DNA from: a virus
Taxonomy: Duplodnaviria; Heunggongvirae; Uroviricota; Caudoviricetes
Reading direction: 5' to 3' (one strand)
IMG/VR virus record: IMGVR_UViG_2617270960_000012
Length of the DNA: 4,848 nucleotides
Position 1 is the stretch's first letter, and each line of letters starts with the position of its first letter. A program made the translations under genes and the position numbers. Below the pieces are notes generated by a model. That model ran no database searches. It saw nothing but the letters and a program-made list of their open reading frames with translations, and was not told where the DNA came from. This document shows, in pieces, positions 1-4,848 of the stretch.

Positions 1-504
1 TTATTGATAGTGTTTTATGTTCAGATAATGCCCGATGATTTTGTCATGCAGCTCCACCGATTTTGAGAACGACAGCGACTTCCGTCCCAGCCGTGCCAGG
101 TGCTGCCTCAGATTCAGGTTATGCCGCTCAATTCGCTGCGTATATCGCTTGCTGATTACGTGCAGCTTTCCCTTCAGGCGGGATTCATACAGCGGCCAGC
201 CATCCGTCATCCATATCACCACGTCAAAGGGTGACAGCAGGCTCATAAGACGCCCCAGCGTCGCCATAGTGCGTTCACCGAATACGTGCGCAACAACCGT
301 CTTCCGGAGCCTGTCATACGCGTAAAACAGCCAGCGCTGGCGCGATTTAGCCCCGACATAGCCCCACTGTTCGTCCATTTCCGCGCAGACGATGACGTCA
401 CTGCCCGGCTGTATGCGCGAGGTTACCGACTGCGGCCTGAGTTTTTTAAGTGACGTAAAATCATGTTGAGGCCAACGCCCATAATGCGGGCTGTTGCCCG
501 GCAT
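1..504 (-). CDS. insB: IS1 transposase InsB frame; normally expressed as an InsAB' fusion by -1 ribosomal frameshift
   Basis: The 167-aa ORF from the track matches IS1 InsB along its length (…[18 protein letters not shown]…[39 protein letters not shown]…). The stop codon is at the window edge (1-3 reverse complement). Confidence 0.9.
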
Positions 505-696
505 CCAACGCCATTCATGGCCATATCAATGATTTTCTGGTGCGTACCGGGTTGAGAAGCGGTGTAAGAACTGCAGTTGCCATGTTTTACGGCAGTGAGA
601 GCAGAGATAGCGCTGATGTCCGGCGATGCTTTTGCCGTTACGCACCACCCCGTCAGTAGCTGAACAGGAGGGACAGCTGATAGAAACAGAAGCCAC
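423..696 (-). pseudogene. insA: IS1 insA with an internal frameshift; the N-terminal zinc-finger part and the C-terminal HTH part are in different frames
   Basis: Translated from GTG at 696 (minus), the frame reads [43 protein letters not shown], then shifts and stops at 526-528. The InsA C-terminus ([33 protein letters not shown]…LKNSGRSR) appears only in another frame, fused to unrelated upstream sequence in the 423..725 track ORF. Compared with canonical IS1 as I recall it, this is a 2-bp deletion between window positions 568 and 569. The IS1 length in the window (751 + ~15) is also 2 bp short of 768. Confidence 0.6.
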
Positions 697-751
697 TGGA
701 GCACCTCAAAAACACCATCATACACTAAATCAGTAAGTTGGCAGCATCACC

Positions 752-967
752 CGCCTCTGCAAACGCTGCGACCCAATAAGCGAAATGCTTCGCTCATATA
801 AACCAGATGAACACACTAAGGACGCTATCGACTGGCTGGAAGATGATGACTGTGACTATCAGGAAAAAGCCGCTGAATGGTTCTGGGATGCAATAACCAA
901 AAGAGTTAAGGCTGAATATGCCTTCGCAATATTCAAACGCAGACACATTTTTGGAGAAGCAGCATGA
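752..967 (+). pseudogene. 3' remnant of a phage early gene truncated by the IS1 insertion; product unknown, possibly the partner of recT
   Basis: The frame of the 785..967 track ORF stays open with no stop back to the IS1 boundary at 752. There is no Shine-Dalgarno before the ATG at 785. Its TGA stop overlaps the recT ATG (ATGA at 964-967). Confidence 0.35.
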
Positions 968-1866
968 GCAATATCGTTGAATTCGTTAAACAGCAAGAGC
1001 AGTTATTCTGCGGAGCATTGACTGAACAGACGGTGACATGGGCTAAGGAAAGCCAGTTTGCAATTCAGTATTTCCAGAAAAATGATTACCTGGCTAAAAC
1101 GGCACTGGCAAATCCAACCAGCGCACAGAACGCCATCATCAATGTTGCGGCGATCGGCATCACCTTAAACCCGGCCAGCAAACTTGCTTATCTAGTTCCG
1201 CGCGACGGCATGGTTTGCCTTGATATCAGCTATATGGGATTACTTCACCTTGCACAGTCGACAGGATCAATTAAGTGGGGGCAATGCAAACTGGTGTACT
1301 CAAACGACACCTATGAATCAAACGGCCTTGATTCAGCACCAACCCACAAATACAACGCATTTGGTGAGCGAGGCTCTATTGTTGGTGGTTATTGCACGGT
1401 TAAAACAGCAGATGGTGACTACCTGACTGAAGAAATGAGTCTGGCAGAAATTAAAGCTGTGGAAGCAACGAGCAAGGCAAAGAATGGACCGTGGAAAACA
1501 TTCTGGGAAGAGATGGCGCGTAAAACAATAGTTAAACGCGCCAGCAAATACTGGCCTAAAGCCCAGCGACTGGATAATGCCATTCACCTGCTTAACGAAG
1601 ATGAAGGTATGCATCAGGAACCAGTTATGCCGCACAAATCAGAGGAAGATATACGCGAAGATGAACGGAAACGCCAGCAGGAAATAATGGATAAAGCACA
1701 ACTTCTTTGTGATGAAATGGCTCAAGCAGAAAACATGGATGATTTGAAGCGATATTTTGCAGAAGCATATCGCCTGACATCTGGAATGAAATTGCAGCAG
1801 AACGTACAAGCCATTTACGCAGAATGCAAAGCGAAACTGGAGGTTGCCAGTGAGCAAACTGTATGA
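964..1866 (+). CDS. recT: RecT-family single-strand annealing recombinase
   Basis: 300-aa ORF with GGAGA 6 nt upstream of ATG 964. The motif NGPWKTFWEEMARKTIVKRASKYWP matches the conserved core of E. coli RecT (NGPW..HWEEMAKKTAIRRLFKYLP). It carries a long charged C-terminal tail. Confidence 0.88.
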   Translation: MSNIVEFVKQQEQLFCGALTEQTVTWAKESQFAIQYFQKNDYLAKTALANPTSAQNAIINVAAIGITLNPASKLAYLVPRDGMVCLDISYMGLLHLAQSTGSIKWGQCKLVYSNDTYESNGLDSAPTHKYNAFGERGSIVGGYCTVKTADGDYLTEEMSLAEIKAVEATSKAKNGPWKTFWEEMARKTIVKRASKYWPKAQRLDNAIHLLNEDEGMHQEPVMPHKSEEDIREDERKRQQEIMDKAQLLCDEMAQAENMDDLKRYFAEAYRLTSGMKLQQNVQAIYAECKAKLEVASEQTV

Positions 1867-2332
1867 AATTGCCAATGAATACGCAAAATTGATGGATTCA
1901 GATTTAGAACCAGAGATGATTGCTGACACAATAGAAGGCATGGAAGGAGAATTTACCGATAAAATAGAGCAACTTCTTTCCGTCATTAAAAATGAATCTG
2001 GTTATGCCGAACGCCTCAAGGAAGAGGCAAAGTCACTGAATGAGCGAGCCACAGTAATTCAAAATAAGATTGACAGCATTATGGCGTATATAGCGTCATC
2101 GCTTGAAATGGTTGGCAAGAAAAAGATTCGAGCAGGTATTCACCAGGTAACAATCCGCAAACCGTCAGAAACTGTAGAAATCATCGACTCAAGCGCCCTT
2201 CCTCCTGAATACGTTGAGTTTGAAACGACAATTAAAGCCGACAAACTGGCAATCAAACACCAACTAAAAGCAGGAATAAATATCCCCGGCGCTCAACTCA
2301 AAGTTGGGAAACCTTCACTTCTTATCAAATAA
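1850..2332 (+). CDS. Siphovirus Gp157-family protein, commonly found next to phage recombinases
   Basis: The N-terminus (SKLYEIANEYAKLMDSDLEPEMIADTIEGMEGEFTDKIEQLLSVIKNE…) and the …VTIRKPSETVEIIDSSALPPEYVEFETTIKADKLAIKHQLKAG… region fit the Gp157 family pattern. Start is placed at GTG 1850 (GGAGG at 1839-1843, 6-nt spacer) rather than the track's TTG 1844. It overlaps the recT stop by 17 nt. Confidence 0.72.
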   Translation: MSKLYEIANEYAKLMDSDLEPEMIADTIEGMEGEFTDKIEQLLSVIKNESGYAERLKEEAKSLNERATVIQNKIDSIMAYIASSLEMVGKKKIRAGIHQVTIRKPSETVEIIDSSALPPEYVEFETTIKADKLAIKHQLKAGINIPGAQLKVGKPSLLIK

Positions 2333-2343
2333 CGGTATCGACT

Positions 2344-2658
2344 ATGAAAAAGACTCCATGGGAGAAATGGGAAGTCGATTTCTTGCGCGAAGTAGCGGCG
2401 ACAATGCCAGTTGAAGTTATCGCTGAAAAACTGGAAAGGACTGAAAAAGCAGTAATAGCAAAAGCAACAAGGATTGGCGCTGACATTGTTAGCCGACTTC
2501 GTGGAAGACGCTGGACAAGAGCCGAAGTATCACTTTTCGGTAAGTTCTCCGCAGAAGAAATAGCAATTGCAACCTGCCGCTCAATTTATTCAGTGAGAGC
2601 TATGCGATACAAGCTAAAAAAACTCGATGAAGAGAGAACAGGCATACGAATAAATTAA
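2344..2658 (+). CDS. Small protein with two tandem helix-turn-helix-like repeats (sigma-70 region 4 / Myb-like pattern); putative DNA-binding regulator
   Basis: 104-aa ORF with an internal duplication: [12 protein letters not shown]…[24 protein letters not shown] and [39 protein letters not shown]. No obvious Shine-Dalgarno before ATG 2344. Confidence 0.55.
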
Positions 2659-2674
2659 CAAAGAGGAATTTACC

Positions 2675-2842
2675 ATGAGAGGACTTGCATACAATCCCGG
2701 CATTCTTCCGGCAGAAATGATTATTCGCCAACGCGTAAAGCCAATGCCATCGAGAGAAGAATTGCTTAAGAGAAAGAGTTTCGGTTCTGTTAATGACAAC
2801 AAATATCTGAATGCGATGTGGCGCAAAGGAGGCAACCAGTGA
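2675..2842 (+). CDS. Small basic hypothetical protein (55 aa), not in the supplied ORF track
   Basis: ATG 2675 follows AAGAGGAA (2661-2668). Translation is [55 protein letters not shown]. Its TGA stop (2840-2842) overlaps the GTG start of the next gene (GTGA). Confidence 0.5.
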
Positions 2843-2843
2843 G
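2827..2843 (+). repeat. Copy 1 of an exact 17-bp direct repeat aggaggcaaccagtgag (Shine-Dalgarno plus GTG start module)
   Basis: Identical 17-mer at 2827-2843 and 3068-3084. It extends to 20 bp with one mismatch (t/c at 2844/3085). Confidence 0.85.
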
Positions 2844-3093
2844 TAATTCAGCACGACTACAGCTTGGTTTTTCACCGCTATCAAAAACTATCATGCTGGC
2901 AAAAATGCGCGATGTTGAAGGTGGACGTATGCGCGTTGGCAATGATCCAGGTCGTGATGTTACCAATGAGGCTGCTCAATTGGTGTGGCGACTGGTCATG
3001 GCTGAAGGTGGTGAGATCGCGTGGGAGCTGGATGATGGTTCTCGCATGGTGTTGAAGGCAGAAAAGCAGGAGGCAACCAGTGAGCAAGATTGA
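2839..3093 (+). CDS. Hypothetical small protein (84 aa)
   Basis: GTG 2839 follows AGGAGG (2827-2832, 6-nt spacer). Same frame as the track ORF 2818..3093. The gene body is flanked by two copies of an exact 17-bp repeat. It overlaps the next gene's start by 14 nt. Confidence 0.55.
3068..3084 (+). repeat. Copy 2 of the exact 17-bp direct repeat aggaggcaaccagtgag
   Basis: See copy 1. Spacing between copies is 241 bp. Each copy contains the ribosome-binding site and GTG start of the gene that follows it. Confidence 0.85.
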
Positions 3094-3793
3094 TTATCAG
3101 GCACTGCGTGCTAAGGCAGAAAAAGCAACGTGTGGTGTATGGTCGCTCGAATATGGAGAGAGCCGATTTGATGGTGATGATGCGCTAATTCATCGTGAAG
3201 TTGCTGGATATATTCCCATTTGCAGAATTGAAGGAGCGCATCCAGAAAGCGGTTTCGATGAAGATTTCCAAATGGAACAGCAGGCCAATGCTGAATTCAT
3301 CGCAGCAGCCAGTCCAGCTACCGTGCTGGCACTACTGGATGAACGGGAAAGAAACCAGCAATACATCAAACGCCGCGACCAGGAGAACGAGGATATTGCG
3401 CTTACGGTTGGGAGGCTGCGCGTTGAGCTGGAAGCAGCAAAAAAGCGCATAGCAGAACTGAAAGCCGAACCTGTAAGCCAAACTTACAAGTTGAACCAGC
3501 TATCGGGCAATTCTCCGGTAACTCCGGATGGTTGGATAAGCTGTAGTGAGCGGATGCCTGTAATTGGCGAGCTAAATTGGAGAACTAGTTTTCCTTTACT
3601 GGTTACGTGTGAGATCGGCGTTATACCTGCTTATTACGGCTTTGTGAGAGTTAATGGGAATAAGCATTATGGTTTTATGGAGAGTCTTAAATATGGAGAT
3701 GATAGCGGCAACCATCCTCAAACTAATGAATATGACCTGATTAGCAATGTAACCCACTGGAGCCGCTGCCAGAACCGCCGAGCAGGATGGTGA
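3080..3793 (+). CDS. Ea22-like prophage protein with a C-terminal DUF551-like domain
   Basis: 237-aa ORF starting at GTG 3080 after AGGAGG. The N-terminus [16 protein letters not shown] resembles Ead/Ea22-like proteins of enterobacterial prophages. A central coiled-coil-like stretch (RLRVELEAAKKRIAELKA) is followed by a C-terminus (GWISCSERMPV…NVTHW…) resembling DUF551. Confidence 0.65.
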   Translation: MSKIDYQALRAKAEKATCGVWSLEYGESRFDGDDALIHREVAGYIPICRIEGAHPESGFDEDFQMEQQANAEFIAAASPATVLALLDERERNQQYIKRRDQENEDIALTVGRLRVELEAAKKRIAELKAEPVSQTYKLNQLSGNSPVTPDGWISCSERMPVIGELNWRTSFPLLVTCEIGVIPAYYGFVRVNGNKHYGFMESLKYGDDSGNHPQTNEYDLISNVTHWSRCQNRRAGW

Positions 3794-3796
3794 ATA

Positions 3797-3883
3797 ATGC
3801 CGCCAGTTAAAGTTGTGATTATCACTTTGGTGATGATAGTGATTGCGAGAATCATGTCTGGTGAAATTGGGTGGATATGGTAA
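3797..3883 (+). CDS. Possible 28-aa hydrophobic micro-peptide with a single predicted transmembrane helix
   Basis: ATG 3797, translation MPPVKVVIITLVMIVIARIMSGEIGWIW, stop TAA 3881-3883. Only a weak AGGA lies 9 nt upstream. It sits directly after the Ea22-like stop codon. Confidence 0.25.
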   Translation: MPPVKVVIITLVMIVIARIMSGEIGWIW

Positions 3884-3946
3884 TGACCAAGGCAGCAGCA
3901 GAGCGCAACTAACAATCCTCGCACTGACGGGGATTTCTTTTATCTG

Positions 3947-3971
3947 AACTCGCTACGGCGAGTTTTGTTTT
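3947..3971 (+). terminator. Intrinsic (Rho-independent) terminator-like hairpin
   Basis: Perfect 7-bp stem aactcgc / gcgagtt with loop tacg, followed by the T-rich run ttgtttt. Confidence 0.5.
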
Positions 3972-3984
3972 ATGGAGATGATAA

Positions 3985-4152
3985 ATGCACTTCCGAGTCA
4001 CAGGTGAATGGAATGGAGAACCATTCAACAGAGTTATCGAAGCAGAGAACATCAACGACTGCTATGACCACTGGATGATATGGGCGCAGATAGCACATGC
4101 AGACGTAACCAATATTCGAATTGAAGAACTGAAAGAACACCAAGCCGCCTGA
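3985..4152 (+). CDS. Small acidic hypothetical protein (55 aa)
   Basis: ATG 3985 follows GGAGA (3974-3978, 6-nt spacer). Translation is MHFRVTGEWNGEPFNRVIEAENINDCYDHWMIWAQIAHADVTNIRIEELKEHQAA. Terminator-like hairpins lie on both sides. Confidence 0.55.
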   Translation: MHFRVTGEWNGEPFNRVIEAENINDCYDHWMIWAQIAHADVTNIRIEELKEHQAA

Positions 4153-4167
4153 TGGCGGTTTTTTATT
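4142..4167 (+). terminator. Intrinsic terminator-like hairpin overlapping the stop codon of the 55-aa gene
   Basis: Stem aagccgcc / ggcggttt (8 bp with one G-U pair), loop tgat, followed by ttttatt. Confidence 0.45.
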
Positions 4168-4178
4168 GGAGACAAGAA

Positions 4179-4523
4179 ATGTCAGATTTGGCTATGAAGG
4201 TTTTGAAATGGCAATCGACTGGCGATGTCGGCATCAGTAGCGCAACTCTTGCCTCAATCGCATGTGGCCTGAAAAAGAATATCTATGGTCATCACTTCGG
4301 CGCTCCGCATGACGCAGCCGATTTCCGACGATGCGTTGCACTTGTTGAGCAGATTCCAGAAATCAGAGATTCATTCGACAAGGTTGCAAAGCGCGTTCCG
4401 GCATTCAAAGGCATCCTCAACGAATGGGATTCCCTCGTCGCTCTGTTGAAGTCTGAAATGAAGATACACGGAAACAAAGCACCAGAGACTTACAGAAGAA
4501 TAAGCGAGTTACGCAATGACTAA
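4179..4523 (+). CDS. Hypothetical prophage protein (114 aa)
   Basis: ATG 4179 follows GGAGA (4166-4170). It is in the same frame as the track ORF 4152..4523, whose upstream ATG lies inside the terminator hairpin and is therefore less likely. No family recognised. Confidence 0.55.
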   Translation: MSDLAMKVLKWQSTGDVGISSATLASIACGLKKNIYGHHFGAPHDAADFRRCVALVEQIPEIRDSFDKVAKRVPAFKGILNEWDSLVALLKSEMKIHGNKAPETYRRISELRND

Positions 4524-4647
4524 CCACAGCCTCACACTCGATGAGGCCTGTTCATTTCTCAAGATATCCAGACCTACCATTGCTGCATCAATGCGGCTTT
4601 TTATTGCCTGATTTGCAGGTTCGATTCCATATTCGGAGATAGCACTC

Positions 4648-4848
4648 ATGCAACACGAACTACAACCTGATTCACTGGTTGATTTGAAATTCATCATGGC
4701 TGATACTGGCTTCGGTAAGACCTTCATCTATGACCGGATTAAGTCCGGCGACCTGCCTAAAGCCAAAGTTATCCACGGACGAGCAAGATGGTTATATCGT
4801 GACCATTGTGAATTCAAAAATAAGCTCTTAAGCCGCGCCAATGGGTAA
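4648..4848 (+). CDS. AlpA/Xis-family small helix-turn-helix protein; excisionase or transcriptional regulator
   Basis: 66-aa ORF with GGAGA 9 nt upstream. The core …FIMADTGFGKTFIYDRIKSGDLPKAKVIHGRARWLYRDHCEF… fits the AlpA/excisionase pattern (…TG.S.STIYR.I..G.FP.P..LG.R...W…). The stop codon is the last 3 bases of the window. Confidence 0.78.
   Translation: MQHELQPDSLVDLKFIMADTGFGKTFIYDRIKSGDLPKAKVIHGRARWLYRDHCEFKNKLLSRANG

Follow-up and report, generated by a model that had tools for sequence, protein, structure and literature searches.

The exo-xis region of λ (orf60a, orf63, orf61, orf73, ea22, ea8.5 and orf55) and the 'ea' region of P22 (orf56, eaE, eaF, eaD, eaI, eaA, eaG and eaC, with the Rec module upstream and xis downstream) are the closest described systems to the interval studied here. 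[quoted passage not shown] The effects documented for the region concern the lysis-lysogeny decision and shifts in host transcription, not defence (PMC7093339, PMC3824215, PMC8614690). HK140-type phages carry a Rec module of SAP-4 plus MuGam (PMC12315714), and the recombination module of KplE1-type elements has attP between torI and intS (PMC3509656, PMC2951348). [quoted passage not shown] It is probably the promoter-distal accessory segment of a lambdoid or P22-like early-left (pL) operon, retained in an IS1-truncated argW prophage remnant.

The window (the whole 4,848-nt stretch of DNA analysed) is 100% identical throughout to the argW–dsdC locus of E. coli 1297KP, where the RefSeq gene order is tRNA-Arg, intS ... 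torI, dsdC. It represents a KplE1/CPS-53-type prophage remnant of ~8 kb, broken by IS1 and integrated at argW, with IntS and TorI at opposite ends and dsdC next to TorI. The same argW ... dsdC site and IntS/TorI module are found in KplE1 (CPS-53) of E. coli K-12 and in the HK620/Sf6 argW phages. The cargo here is probably a different mosaic from that of KplE1, an HK140/Gally-type early-left segment, in an element that IS1 has reduced to ~8 kb. According to RefSeq annotation, the remnant contains intS, two cargo genes, IS1, the exo–xis gene train and torI, and nothing else. Immunity, replication and structural genes are absent, as are pL and N, whose loss was caused by the IS1 truncation. The features flanking the interval are as follows.

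1 to 751, minus strand: IS1A element (RefSeq IS1-like IS1A transposase); the window begins about 19 nt inside it.
785 to 967, plus strand: the last 60 codons of a phrog_3486 gene (PHROG positions 43-102 of 102 matched).
964 to 1866, plus strand: RecT-family single-strand annealing protein (PF03837, E 2.5e-33; phrog_148).
1850 to 2332, plus strand: Gp157, a MuGam-type end-protection protein (PF05565, E 4.6e-37; phrog_253 'Mu Gam-like end protection'); the start coordinate is the PGAP GTG.
4516 to 4611, plus strand: P22/Gally-type xis relic (first ~29 codons), 93% identical to the N-terminus of the Gally excisionase and 70% to P22 Xis.
4648 to 4848, plus strand: TorI, excisionase (RDF) of KplE1-type phages and right limit of the interval (RefSeq torI, phrog_66; PMC3509656, PMC2951348).

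The IS1A element forms the left break of the remnant. Homology to intact relatives starts at 752, the early-left operon upstream of the break is gone, and the phrog_3486 gene is IS1-truncated and called by PGAP as a partial pseudogene. From its family matches, Gp157 is a predicted anti-RecBCD protein.

The original prediction described six small co-directional genes (104, 55, 84, 237, 55 and 114 aa) and a possible 28-aa peptide in the interval. All were confirmed, the 28-aa ORF being conserved.

2344 to 2658, plus strand: p104, tandem helix-turn-helix protein (AF2 model pLDDT 84.7; phrog_323 'D5-like regulator').
2675 to 2842, plus strand: p55a, DUF2737 protein (PF10930, E 1.8e-29), homologue of P22 Orf56 and HK97 gp38.
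2839 to 3093, plus strand: p84, DUF7446 protein with a GTG start (PF24233, E 1.3e-18).
3080 to 3793, plus strand: p237, in-frame EaD/Ea22–EaA/DUF551 fusion with a GTG start (PF13935 at residues 2-126, PF04448 at residues 151-227).
3797 to 3883, plus strand: 28-aa hydrophobic ORF; 7 loci conserve it with 0-1 nt changes, whereas the sequence downstream has 4-6 per 100 nt.
3985 to 4152, plus strand: p55b, λ Orf55 (lambdap35; 100% aa identity to λ 29121-29285; phrog_676).
4179 to 4523, plus strand: p114, member of a phage early-protein family, with an all-helical model.

All interval ORFs lie on the plus strand, as do RecT and Gp157 upstream and TorI downstream, and the ORFs agree with RefSeq gene calls wherever RefSeq has calls. 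Across alleles, dN/dS was 0.10 for p104, 0.30 for p55a, 0.22 for p55b and 0.14 for p114; p84 gave 0.61, from six alleles only. The interval genes are real coding genes, with purifying selection on most of them.

As in described lambdoid accessory regions, the interval sits between the recombination module and xis, co-directional with both, and it contains homologues of λ Orf55, λ Ea22, P22 Orf56 and segments of P22 EaD and EaA. The λ Orf55 protein is identical to p55b, the cassette of tandem hairpin, orf55 and terminator is nearly base-identical in the two, and over 76 aa the core of p237 shares 59% identity with λ Ea22. The window differs from λ in lacking homologues of orf60a, orf61, orf63, orf73 and ea8.5, in carrying RecT plus MuGam where λ has Exo-Bet-Gam, and in having TorI rather than λ Xis as its excisionase. 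The lysis-lysogeny phenotypes of the region come from orf60a, orf61, orf63, orf73 and ea22 of λ and Φ24B, most of which have no homologue in the window.

With P22, p55a shares 73% identity to orf56, the p237 coiled coil corresponds to EaD (76% over 46 aa) and the DUF551 start motif to EaA (85% over 20 aa). Similarity of p55b to eaG is limited to a 25-aa C-terminal stretch (68%), and the window has no homologues of eaC, eaE, eaF or eaI and no Erf, Abc1 or Abc2. Gene order is also shared with HK140, Gally, mEpX1 and Kapi1, in which RecT, Gp157, p104 and DUF2737 occur in the same order at 87-98% aa identity; Gally also has orf55, p114 and a P22-type xis in the order of the window. These four phages differ from the window in having separate EaD-like and EaA-like genes and extra cassettes (DUF5405, ASCH, DUF4752), and in lacking DUF7446. 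All four are complete, having pL, N and an integrase adjoining xis, whereas the window is a remnant. By analogy with these systems, the interval would be a non-essential early accessory region, in support of the original prediction.

Variability of the recT-xis interval across relatives, proposed as the test of that prediction, was high. Among 58 related loci there were 53 ORF architectures and 88 ORF clusters, with intervals of 2075-5422 bp (2.1-5.4 kb). Of 5426 complete E. coli genomes, 3567 carry pieces and one has the exact full arrangement. Gene content is thus mosaic and differs among close relatives, as in lambdoid accessory regions. The near-constant genes are p104, DUF2737 (97% of the Gp157-type intervals) and an Ea22-like gene (90%). 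All others are present in 69% or fewer, mostly in 36% or fewer, and p84 is a sporadic cassette found in 14%. An accessory and mosaic interval is supported and already known, the region having been described in λ and P22 decades ago. As found, the locus matters little, being one more mosaic version in a dead prophage.

Homology breakpoints coincide with gene junctions, with a short junction motif and with hairpins.

2827 to 2843, plus strand: junction motif copy 1, a Shine-Dalgarno GGAGG followed after 6 nt by an overlapping GTG start and TGA stop.
3068 to 3084, plus strand: junction motif copy 2, an exact repeat confirmed by direct reading of the sequence.
3914 to 3965, plus strand: tandem hairpin with stems at 3914-3935 and 3946-3965 (MFE -21.4 kcal/mol, z -4.6).
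4142 to 4161, plus strand: intrinsic-terminator-like hairpin after orf55, a stem plus T-tract (z -2.9).

The duplicated boundary repeat noted earlier is real: AGGAGGCAACCAGTGAG occurs exactly twice, at 2827 and 3068, against 0.01 copies expected by chance, and none of 200 shuffles reached two matches. At copy 2 the upstream gene uses a different frame from that used at copy 1, and a 75% copy lies at the recT/gp157 junction. In the 58 related intervals the 17-nt motif occurs 52 times, each time opening an ORF, and it precedes at least four unrelated gene families.

Equally real is the terminator-insulated gene, p55b, which has the tandem hairpin upstream and a hairpin with T-tract downstream. 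The second stem of the tandem hairpin is followed by a T-tract and resembles an intrinsic terminator, and the HK140 counterpart of the hairpin after orf55 is annotated as a rho-independent terminator. As a mosaic joint the tandem hairpin is conserved: 122 of 161 loci have it, and λ shows the same stems. The p55b gene itself is a present/absent cassette, missing from 39 loci that retain the upstream hairpin. Prevalence of orf55 and p114 was taken from tblastn and flank analysis. The clustering of breakpoints at the repeat and the hairpins bears out the suggestion of module turnover, and the two elements provide clean, quantified examples of cassette exchange at a portable junction motif and at terminator hairpins. 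Cassettes would be swapped between co-resident phages or prophages by recombination at such short shared sequences, and the phage's own RecT probably helps. We also considered whether the tandem hairpin is the λ early-left sRNA LPR1/PreS and rejected this, as LPR1/PreS sits at tL2a, between ea10 and ral.

The 237-aa gene is present as an ORF as first described, but it is not a simple gene. Its N half (EaD/Ea22-like, with a coiled coil) reaches ~3447 and its EaA/DUF551-like C half starts at ~3506. The Ead_Ea22 match (PF13935, E 1.9e-30) spans the N-terminal region and coiled coil, placing this half in the Ead/Ea22-like family. The halves match separate genes in HK140 (035 and 032) and in Gally (EaD and EaA), and there are also two genes in SCU-109. 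PGAP calls only 3062-3457 here, as a pseudogene fragment. In 90% clustering the exact protein is a singleton, found on 19 contigs, and its full-length architecture is not widely shared. Hence p237 is a rare in-frame deletion fusion of two genes. Where λ Ea22 has its own C-terminal domain, p237 instead carries a DUF551 C-terminus. That p237 shares only an N-terminal and coiled-coil part with Ea22 counts against the interval being a lambdoid early-left accessory segment. Just downstream, a module boundary coincides with the start of the 28-aa ORF. The exact sequence of this ORF is absent from the protein collection searched; its hydrophobic translation makes it a possible small membrane peptide of uncertain status.

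Expression signals in the window also fit an operon. No interval gene has a promoter of its own upstream (four promoter-like sites were found against 7.6 expected), and terminators inside a gene train without own promoters fit operon read-through. No Rfam family was found in the whole window at E≤1. The early-left strand is repressed in a lysogen. In an intact phage, the genes would be transcribed delayed-early from pL by antiterminated RNA polymerase passing the internal hairpins, and their products would act as small modulators of phage and host regulation, each dispensable by itself. In the remnant, transcription from pL with antitermination cannot occur. With promoter and antiterminator both gone from the operon, the genes here most likely persist as relics that are silent or weakly expressed, although all ORFs apart from p237 and the xis relic are still intact. 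Whatever their role in a phage, the accessory genes are unlikely to perform it here, where IS1 has truncated the element and pL and N are missing.

An alternative reading is that the interval is a counter-defence island, in which one or more small proteins such as p114, Orf55, DUF2737 or DUF7446 inhibit an anti-phage system (restriction, CBASS, Thoeris, Gabija or others) and mosaicism reflects an arms race. We consider this improbable. Counter-defence neighbours do occur in the same operon (the MuGam-type anti-RecBCD protein here, Ral and Abc2 in relatives), cassette turnover is high, and the small early proteins have no homology to anything known. A published report likens Orf55 to two small inhibitor proteins, φ29 p56 and T7 Gp2, but the modelled fold and the idea of an RNAP modulator are speculative (PMC8614690). 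The p114 family is large and uncharacterised, with more than 2000 diverged representatives across phages, one of them on a non-lambdoid contig among early genes.

Against this, Pfam matched the six proteins only to DUFs, Ead_Ea22 and, weakly, one HTH family, and PHROG best matches were 'unknown function' or 'transcription regulation', with no anti-defence family in either. No interval protein matched a PADLOC defence model at E≤0.1, TorI alone matching 'mad1', an AlpA-type HTH. None exceeded the NCBIfam cut-off, and no PDB sequence relative was found for p237, p104, p55b, p84, p55a or the p114 profile. The confident models of p104 and p114 had no significant match among solved structures, solved inhibitors included; p104 has the appearance of a protein that binds DNA rather than of a mimic or an enzyme. 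The 'Abc1' label of p104 in Gally has no sequence support. The literature found for the exo–xis region describes developmental phenotypes only, and nothing specific on an anti-defence role. The earlier suggestion of anti-defence or superinfection exclusion is thus not supported, and an anti-defence role for the interval proteins is speculation.

A narrower possibility, that at least one conserved early protein represents a novel kind of factor for host takeover or counter-defence, or alternatively that the hairpin yields an sRNA, is likewise unlikely. The best candidate would be p114, in which P43, D45, D48, R51 and C52 are invariant within a P-x-D-P-x-D-F-x-R-C consensus and look like a binding or active site. 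By analogy with λ tL2a (LPR1/PreS), the tandem hairpin upstream of orf55 may yield a terminator-derived regulatory sRNA. A counter-defence or host-takeover role for one of the orphan families, should it prove true, would concern thousands of enterobacterial prophages, Stx phages among them.

The role of the Rec module bears on another alternative, in which the whole interval extends this module and aids RecT/MuGam or the switch to rolling-circle replication. The behaviour of p104 fits this idea. Its AF2 model has two three-helix units, and a fold search gave weak matches to bipartite HTH DNA-binding domains and nothing else, none significant in the PDB. It was found in 58 of 58 related intervals, together with Gp157 in 13 of 13 independent loci and in none of 53 loci without Gp157. 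The offset between the two is fixed at 15 nt in coordinates (an 11-nt gap in the window). Thus p104, predicted to bind DNA, is inherited with RecT–Gp157; it is strictly linked to this pair and fits the Rec block better than the variable island in which it was first placed. DUF2737, near-constant in Gp157-type intervals, also follows abc2 in P22. The remaining genes apart from the Ea22-like one are however sporadic and pair with different Rec modules: in λ, Orf55 comes after Red, and 53 loci have p114 but lack Gp157. Lambdoid Rec modules have been treated as contiguous clusters without extraneous genes, that of HK140 being RecT plus MuGam only (PMC12315714). An extended Rec module is thus very unlikely as an account of the whole interval. 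The possibility that p104 is P22 Abc1, from the Gally record label 'anti-RecBCD protein 1 / Abc1', was rejected, as BLASTP gave no alignment at E≤100; tblastn of p104 against all phages reached only 16 close relatives and did not reach P22.

It is extremely unlikely that the interval holds prophage-expressed morons, superinfection-exclusion or defence genes guarding the lysogen, with terminator-flanked orf55 as an autonomous unit. In favour of this reading, orf55 does have terminator-like hairpins on both sides and the behaviour of an insertable cassette, and cryptic prophage genes can benefit the host (PMC3105296). Against it, all interval genes lie on the early-left strand with orf55 oriented with the operon, no promoter-like site precedes orf55 or any other interval gene, the stretch from the upstream hairpin to the orf55 ATG holds only a GGAG Shine-Dalgarno and no σ70-like promoter, and no PADLOC defence model is matched.

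The interval ends at the gene first described as 'AlpA/Xis'. This gene does encode an excisionase, but its identity is corrected to TorI (dN/dS 0.009), with dsdC adjoining in RefSeq. Annotation of the locus is further corrected by grouping p104 with RecT-MuGam, by reading p237 as a fusion and by discarding the unsupported Gally label. The second, P22-type xis is a relic of about 29-31 codons that ends at a weak hairpin (4582-4597) and forms the joint to the TorI module, whose boundary is at 4593. Damage unique to this remnant was rejected as the origin of the joint, which is common to 32 loci including long prophage contigs. TorI at 100% identity closes the interval in 40 of 80 Gp157-anchored contigs.

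The small-gene block at 2344-4523, between the recombination genes recT and gp157 and the excisionase gene, was found to contain every predicted ORF at its predicted size, in agreement with RefSeq wherever RefSeq calls one. The excisionase itself, called AlpA/Xis in the original prediction, is TorI. Interval proteins are named by their length in amino acids, p55b being λ Orf55, and the features of the window are as follows.

Features of the window
1-751, IS1A, truncating the next gene; the rest of the prophage is removed
785-967, phrog_3486 gene, truncated
964-1866 (+), RecT
1838-1857, weaker junction-motif copy at the recT/gp157 junction
1850-2332 (+), Gp157
2344-2658, p104
2675-2842, p55a, DUF2737
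2827-2843, 17-nt junction motif (GGAGG, N6, GTGA)
2839-3093, p84, DUF7446
3068-3084, junction motif, second exact copy
3080-3793, p237, Ead/Ea22-like plus DUF551
3797-3883, 28-aa ORF, MPPVKVVIITLVMIVIARIMSGEIGWIW, strongly hydrophobic (GRAVY 1.59)
3985-4152, p55b, phrog_676
4179-4523, p114, phrog_1229
4516-4611, xis relic, a 31-codon ORF whose first ~29 codons are P22/Gally-type xis
4648-4848 (+), TorI

The interval ORFs are real genes. Each ORF begins either behind a plausible Shine-Dalgarno sequence or at a start codon that overlaps a stop, and alleles from 161 related loci gave dN/dS values of 0.10 for p104, 0.30 for p55a, 0.22 for p55b and 0.14 for p114, compared with 0.07 for both RecT and Gp157. 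The value for p84 was 0.61, from six alleles only. The proteins fall in known but function-less phage families (Pfam, PHROGs). A scan of the window placed no σ70-like promoter upstream of any interval gene (4 sites vs 7.6 expected). Together with the terminators inside the gene train, the lack of own promoters fits an antiterminated polymerase reading through from pL, whilst autonomous 'moron' expression does not.

Variability was assessed in 58 loci having both Gp157 and a right-hand excisionase. Invariance among relatives, which had been named as evidence against an accessory island, was clearly not found: interval length ranged from 2075 to 5422 bp, with 54 distinct sequences, 53 ORF architectures and 88 ORF clusters. 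Only p104 (100%), the DUF2737 gene (97%) and the Ea22-like gene (90%) were near-universal; each remaining cluster occurred in at most 69% of loci, most in at most 36%. Among 5426 complete E. coli genomes, 3567 carry pieces of the interval, only three reach a coverage of 80% or more and a single one has the whole arrangement; pieces also turn up in 533 phage records. Homology breakpoints were concentrated where genes begin or end, around the junction motif (2823/2846, 3068/3081) and at the hairpins (3910, 4161-4168, 4593-4601). The prediction of a non-essential, rapidly reshuffled early accessory region thus stands, such regions being well established for lambdoid phages. The interval is a new mosaic version of this known region, with one gene that is λ to the residue.

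The repeat earlier noted as duplicated at gene boundaries, AGGAGGCAACCAGTGAG, occurs exactly twice in the window, against 0.01 expected by chance. Within the 58 related intervals we found 52 occurrences with at most two mismatches. The GTG of the motif is in every case the first codon of an ORF of 40 codons or more, the overlapping TGA ends the upstream ORF in 37 cases, and at least four unrelated families are represented among the genes downstream. The genes upstream of the two exact copies use different frames (…KGGNQ* and …QEATSEQD*), and conservation is therefore at the DNA level. The junction motif is a DNA-level conserved translational-coupling and recombination joint.

A second kind of joint surrounds p55b, which is identical to λ Orf55 (lambdap35; 100% amino-acid identity). 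In λ, Orf55 is the last gene ahead of xis, and the entire hairpin-orf55-terminator cassette is nearly base-identical to that of the window. The gene had been described as terminator-insulated, and terminator-like hairpins do lie on both sides: a tandem pair upstream (3914-3965, z = -4.6 vs shuffles) and a hairpin with T-tract downstream (4142-4161, z = -2.9). The tandem hairpin was present in 122 of 161 loci, so its conservation is wider than that of the genes on either side. In 39 of the 122, p114 follows directly and orf55 is absent; both alternative joints share the layout 'hairpin, T-tract, GGAGA, N5, ATG'. The orf55 gene behaves as a discrete cassette. Two pairs of terminator-like elements are alike, 4144-4168 with 4582-4606 and 3946-3987 with 4142-4181 (repeat D6 76% identical, both with the same layout). 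Orf55 and p114 are bracketed by these elements as direct repeats, which would allow precise cassette loss or gain. In 39 loci orf55 is missing at exactly the direct-repeat joint.

The tandem hairpin could be merely a pL-operon terminator and recombination joint. As shown for tL2a/LPR1 in λ, it could also be the 3' terminus of a terminator-derived sRNA. In λ it lies at about 29,290-29,345 of NC_001416, and across λ, HK140, Gally and the window its stems are kept and its loops vary. Published modelling gave Orf55 a small α/β fold resembling φ29 p56 and T7 Gp2, with a role as RNA polymerase modulator offered as speculation (PMC8614690). λ orf55 is also found at 100% identity and λ-like coordinates in GenBank MW057783.1, 'Campylobacter phage CJLB-4' (48,361 bp), which looks like a λ genome under another name. 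The other small protein, p55a, is the homologue of P22 Orf56 (73% identity).

The p237 gene is a fusion of two adjacent genes through an in-frame deletion, since its halves match separate HK140 genes. In DNA comparisons, HK140 gene 035/Gally EaD aligns with 3068-3447 over its N-terminal half, and HK140 gene 032, ~1.4 kb further along, aligns with 3506-3787 over its C-terminal part. The coiled-coil core is 59% identical to λ Ea22 over 76 aa and 76% to P22 EaD over 46 aa, and a P22 EaA-like DUF551 motif opens the C-terminal half. The fusion explains why PGAP labels p237 a pseudogene and why the exact protein is a singleton 90% cluster (19 contigs only), in contrast to clusters of 297 to 1623 members for all other interval proteins.

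By contrast with its reshuffled neighbours, p104 belongs with the recombination genes and is always inherited with RecT-Gp157. In loci gathered independently via p114, it was present in exactly the 13 with RecT and Gp157 and absent from all 53 without Gp157; all 58 Gp157-type intervals carry it. Its coordinate offset is a constant 15 nt, corresponding in the window to a gap of 11 nt, though RecT alleles differ (87% vs 99% identity). p104 matches phrog_11492 and phrog_323 ('D5-like regulator'), and its AlphaFold model (pLDDT 84.7) contains two three-helix HTH units; longer relatives have a third, some with a σ70 region-4 Pfam match. Foldseek returned weak matches only (E > 0.09). Most are DNA-binding HTH domains, and several of these are bipartite, namely paired domains, Tc3 transposase, AraC and tandem homeodomains. 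The Gally GenBank record names a p104 homologue 'anti-RecBCD protein 1, similar to P22 Abc1', a similarity undetectable in sequence. The recombination module is of the 'HK140 type', defined by a RecT-type annealing protein and a MuGam-type anti-RecBCD protein (PMC12315714).

The most interesting single item of the interval is p114, which belongs to a large family of phage proteins that carries no annotation. It matches no Pfam family and first appeared narrow; an exhaustive profile search recovered 2255 cluster representatives at E <= 1e-3, of which 315 remained at E <= 1e-10. One homologue lies among early genes of an unrelated phage contig encoding a family-A DNA polymerase, and one family member has a CCA-adding/poly(A) polymerase-HD protein as its fusion partner. 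G18, S20, P43, D45, D48, R51 and C52 are invariant, the last five within the consensus P-x-D-P-x-D-F-x-R-C, and W11 and W83 nearly so. No solved structural neighbour was found despite a model with pLDDT 95. The 28-aa ORF may encode a small membrane peptide. It is kept in 7/7 loci carrying its segment, with 0-1 nt changes per 87 nt compared with 4-6 per 100 nt downstream; upstream sequence is unrelated, and its start codon is the exact mosaic boundary.

Counter-defence genes had also been proposed for the interval, and this part of the original prediction fared less well. Plasmid-borne λ exo-xis, the accessory early-left region and a recognised block that has been studied in part, impairs lysogenization and alters induction, with orf60a, orf61 and orf63 pro-lytic, ea22 and orf73 pro-lysogenic, and Orf73 a TraR-like RNA-polymerase binder (PMC3824215, PMC7093339, PMC8614690, PMC9239242). 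Literature reports of counter-defence activity were found for none of the region's genes. No interval protein matched PADLOC models or PHROG or Pfam families annotated as anti-defence, and no sequence relatives were found in the PDB. The anti-defence reading was a reasonable guess with no positive evidence, and it is unlikely that even one interval gene has such a role.

At the right-hand end, the 31-codon ORF encodes the N-terminal part of a P22/Gally-type Xis, with 93% identity to the Gally excisionase and 70% to P22 Xis. TorI-module homology starts at 4593, within a weak hairpin (4582-4597). Local damage is ruled out, as 32 related loci carry the same joint, which is thus an inherited mosaic joint. 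The relic records an old swap of a P22-type xis-int module for IntS/TorI.

E. coli strain 1297KP carries the window in its chromosome at 100% identity, and RefSeq gives the order there as tRNA-Arg (argW), intS, an EpsG-family gene, a hypothetical gene, IS1A, a truncated ORF, RecT, Gp157, the interval genes, torI and the host gene dsdC. The attachment site and the IntS/TorI recombination module are those of the KplE1 (CPS-53) prophage family, which also takes in HK620 and many argW-integrating phages (PMC3509656, PMC2951348). The element measures only ~8 kb. Position 751 is the last of IS1 and intact relatives become homologous from 752 onward, so the pL promoter, N, immunity region and replication, lysis and virion genes are missing. 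The interval in 1297KP thus sits in a prophage remnant that lacks the promoter, and this reduces its biological weight further. Between intS and IS1 only the EpsG-family gene and one hypothetical gene are left; these may be O-antigen-modification cargo.
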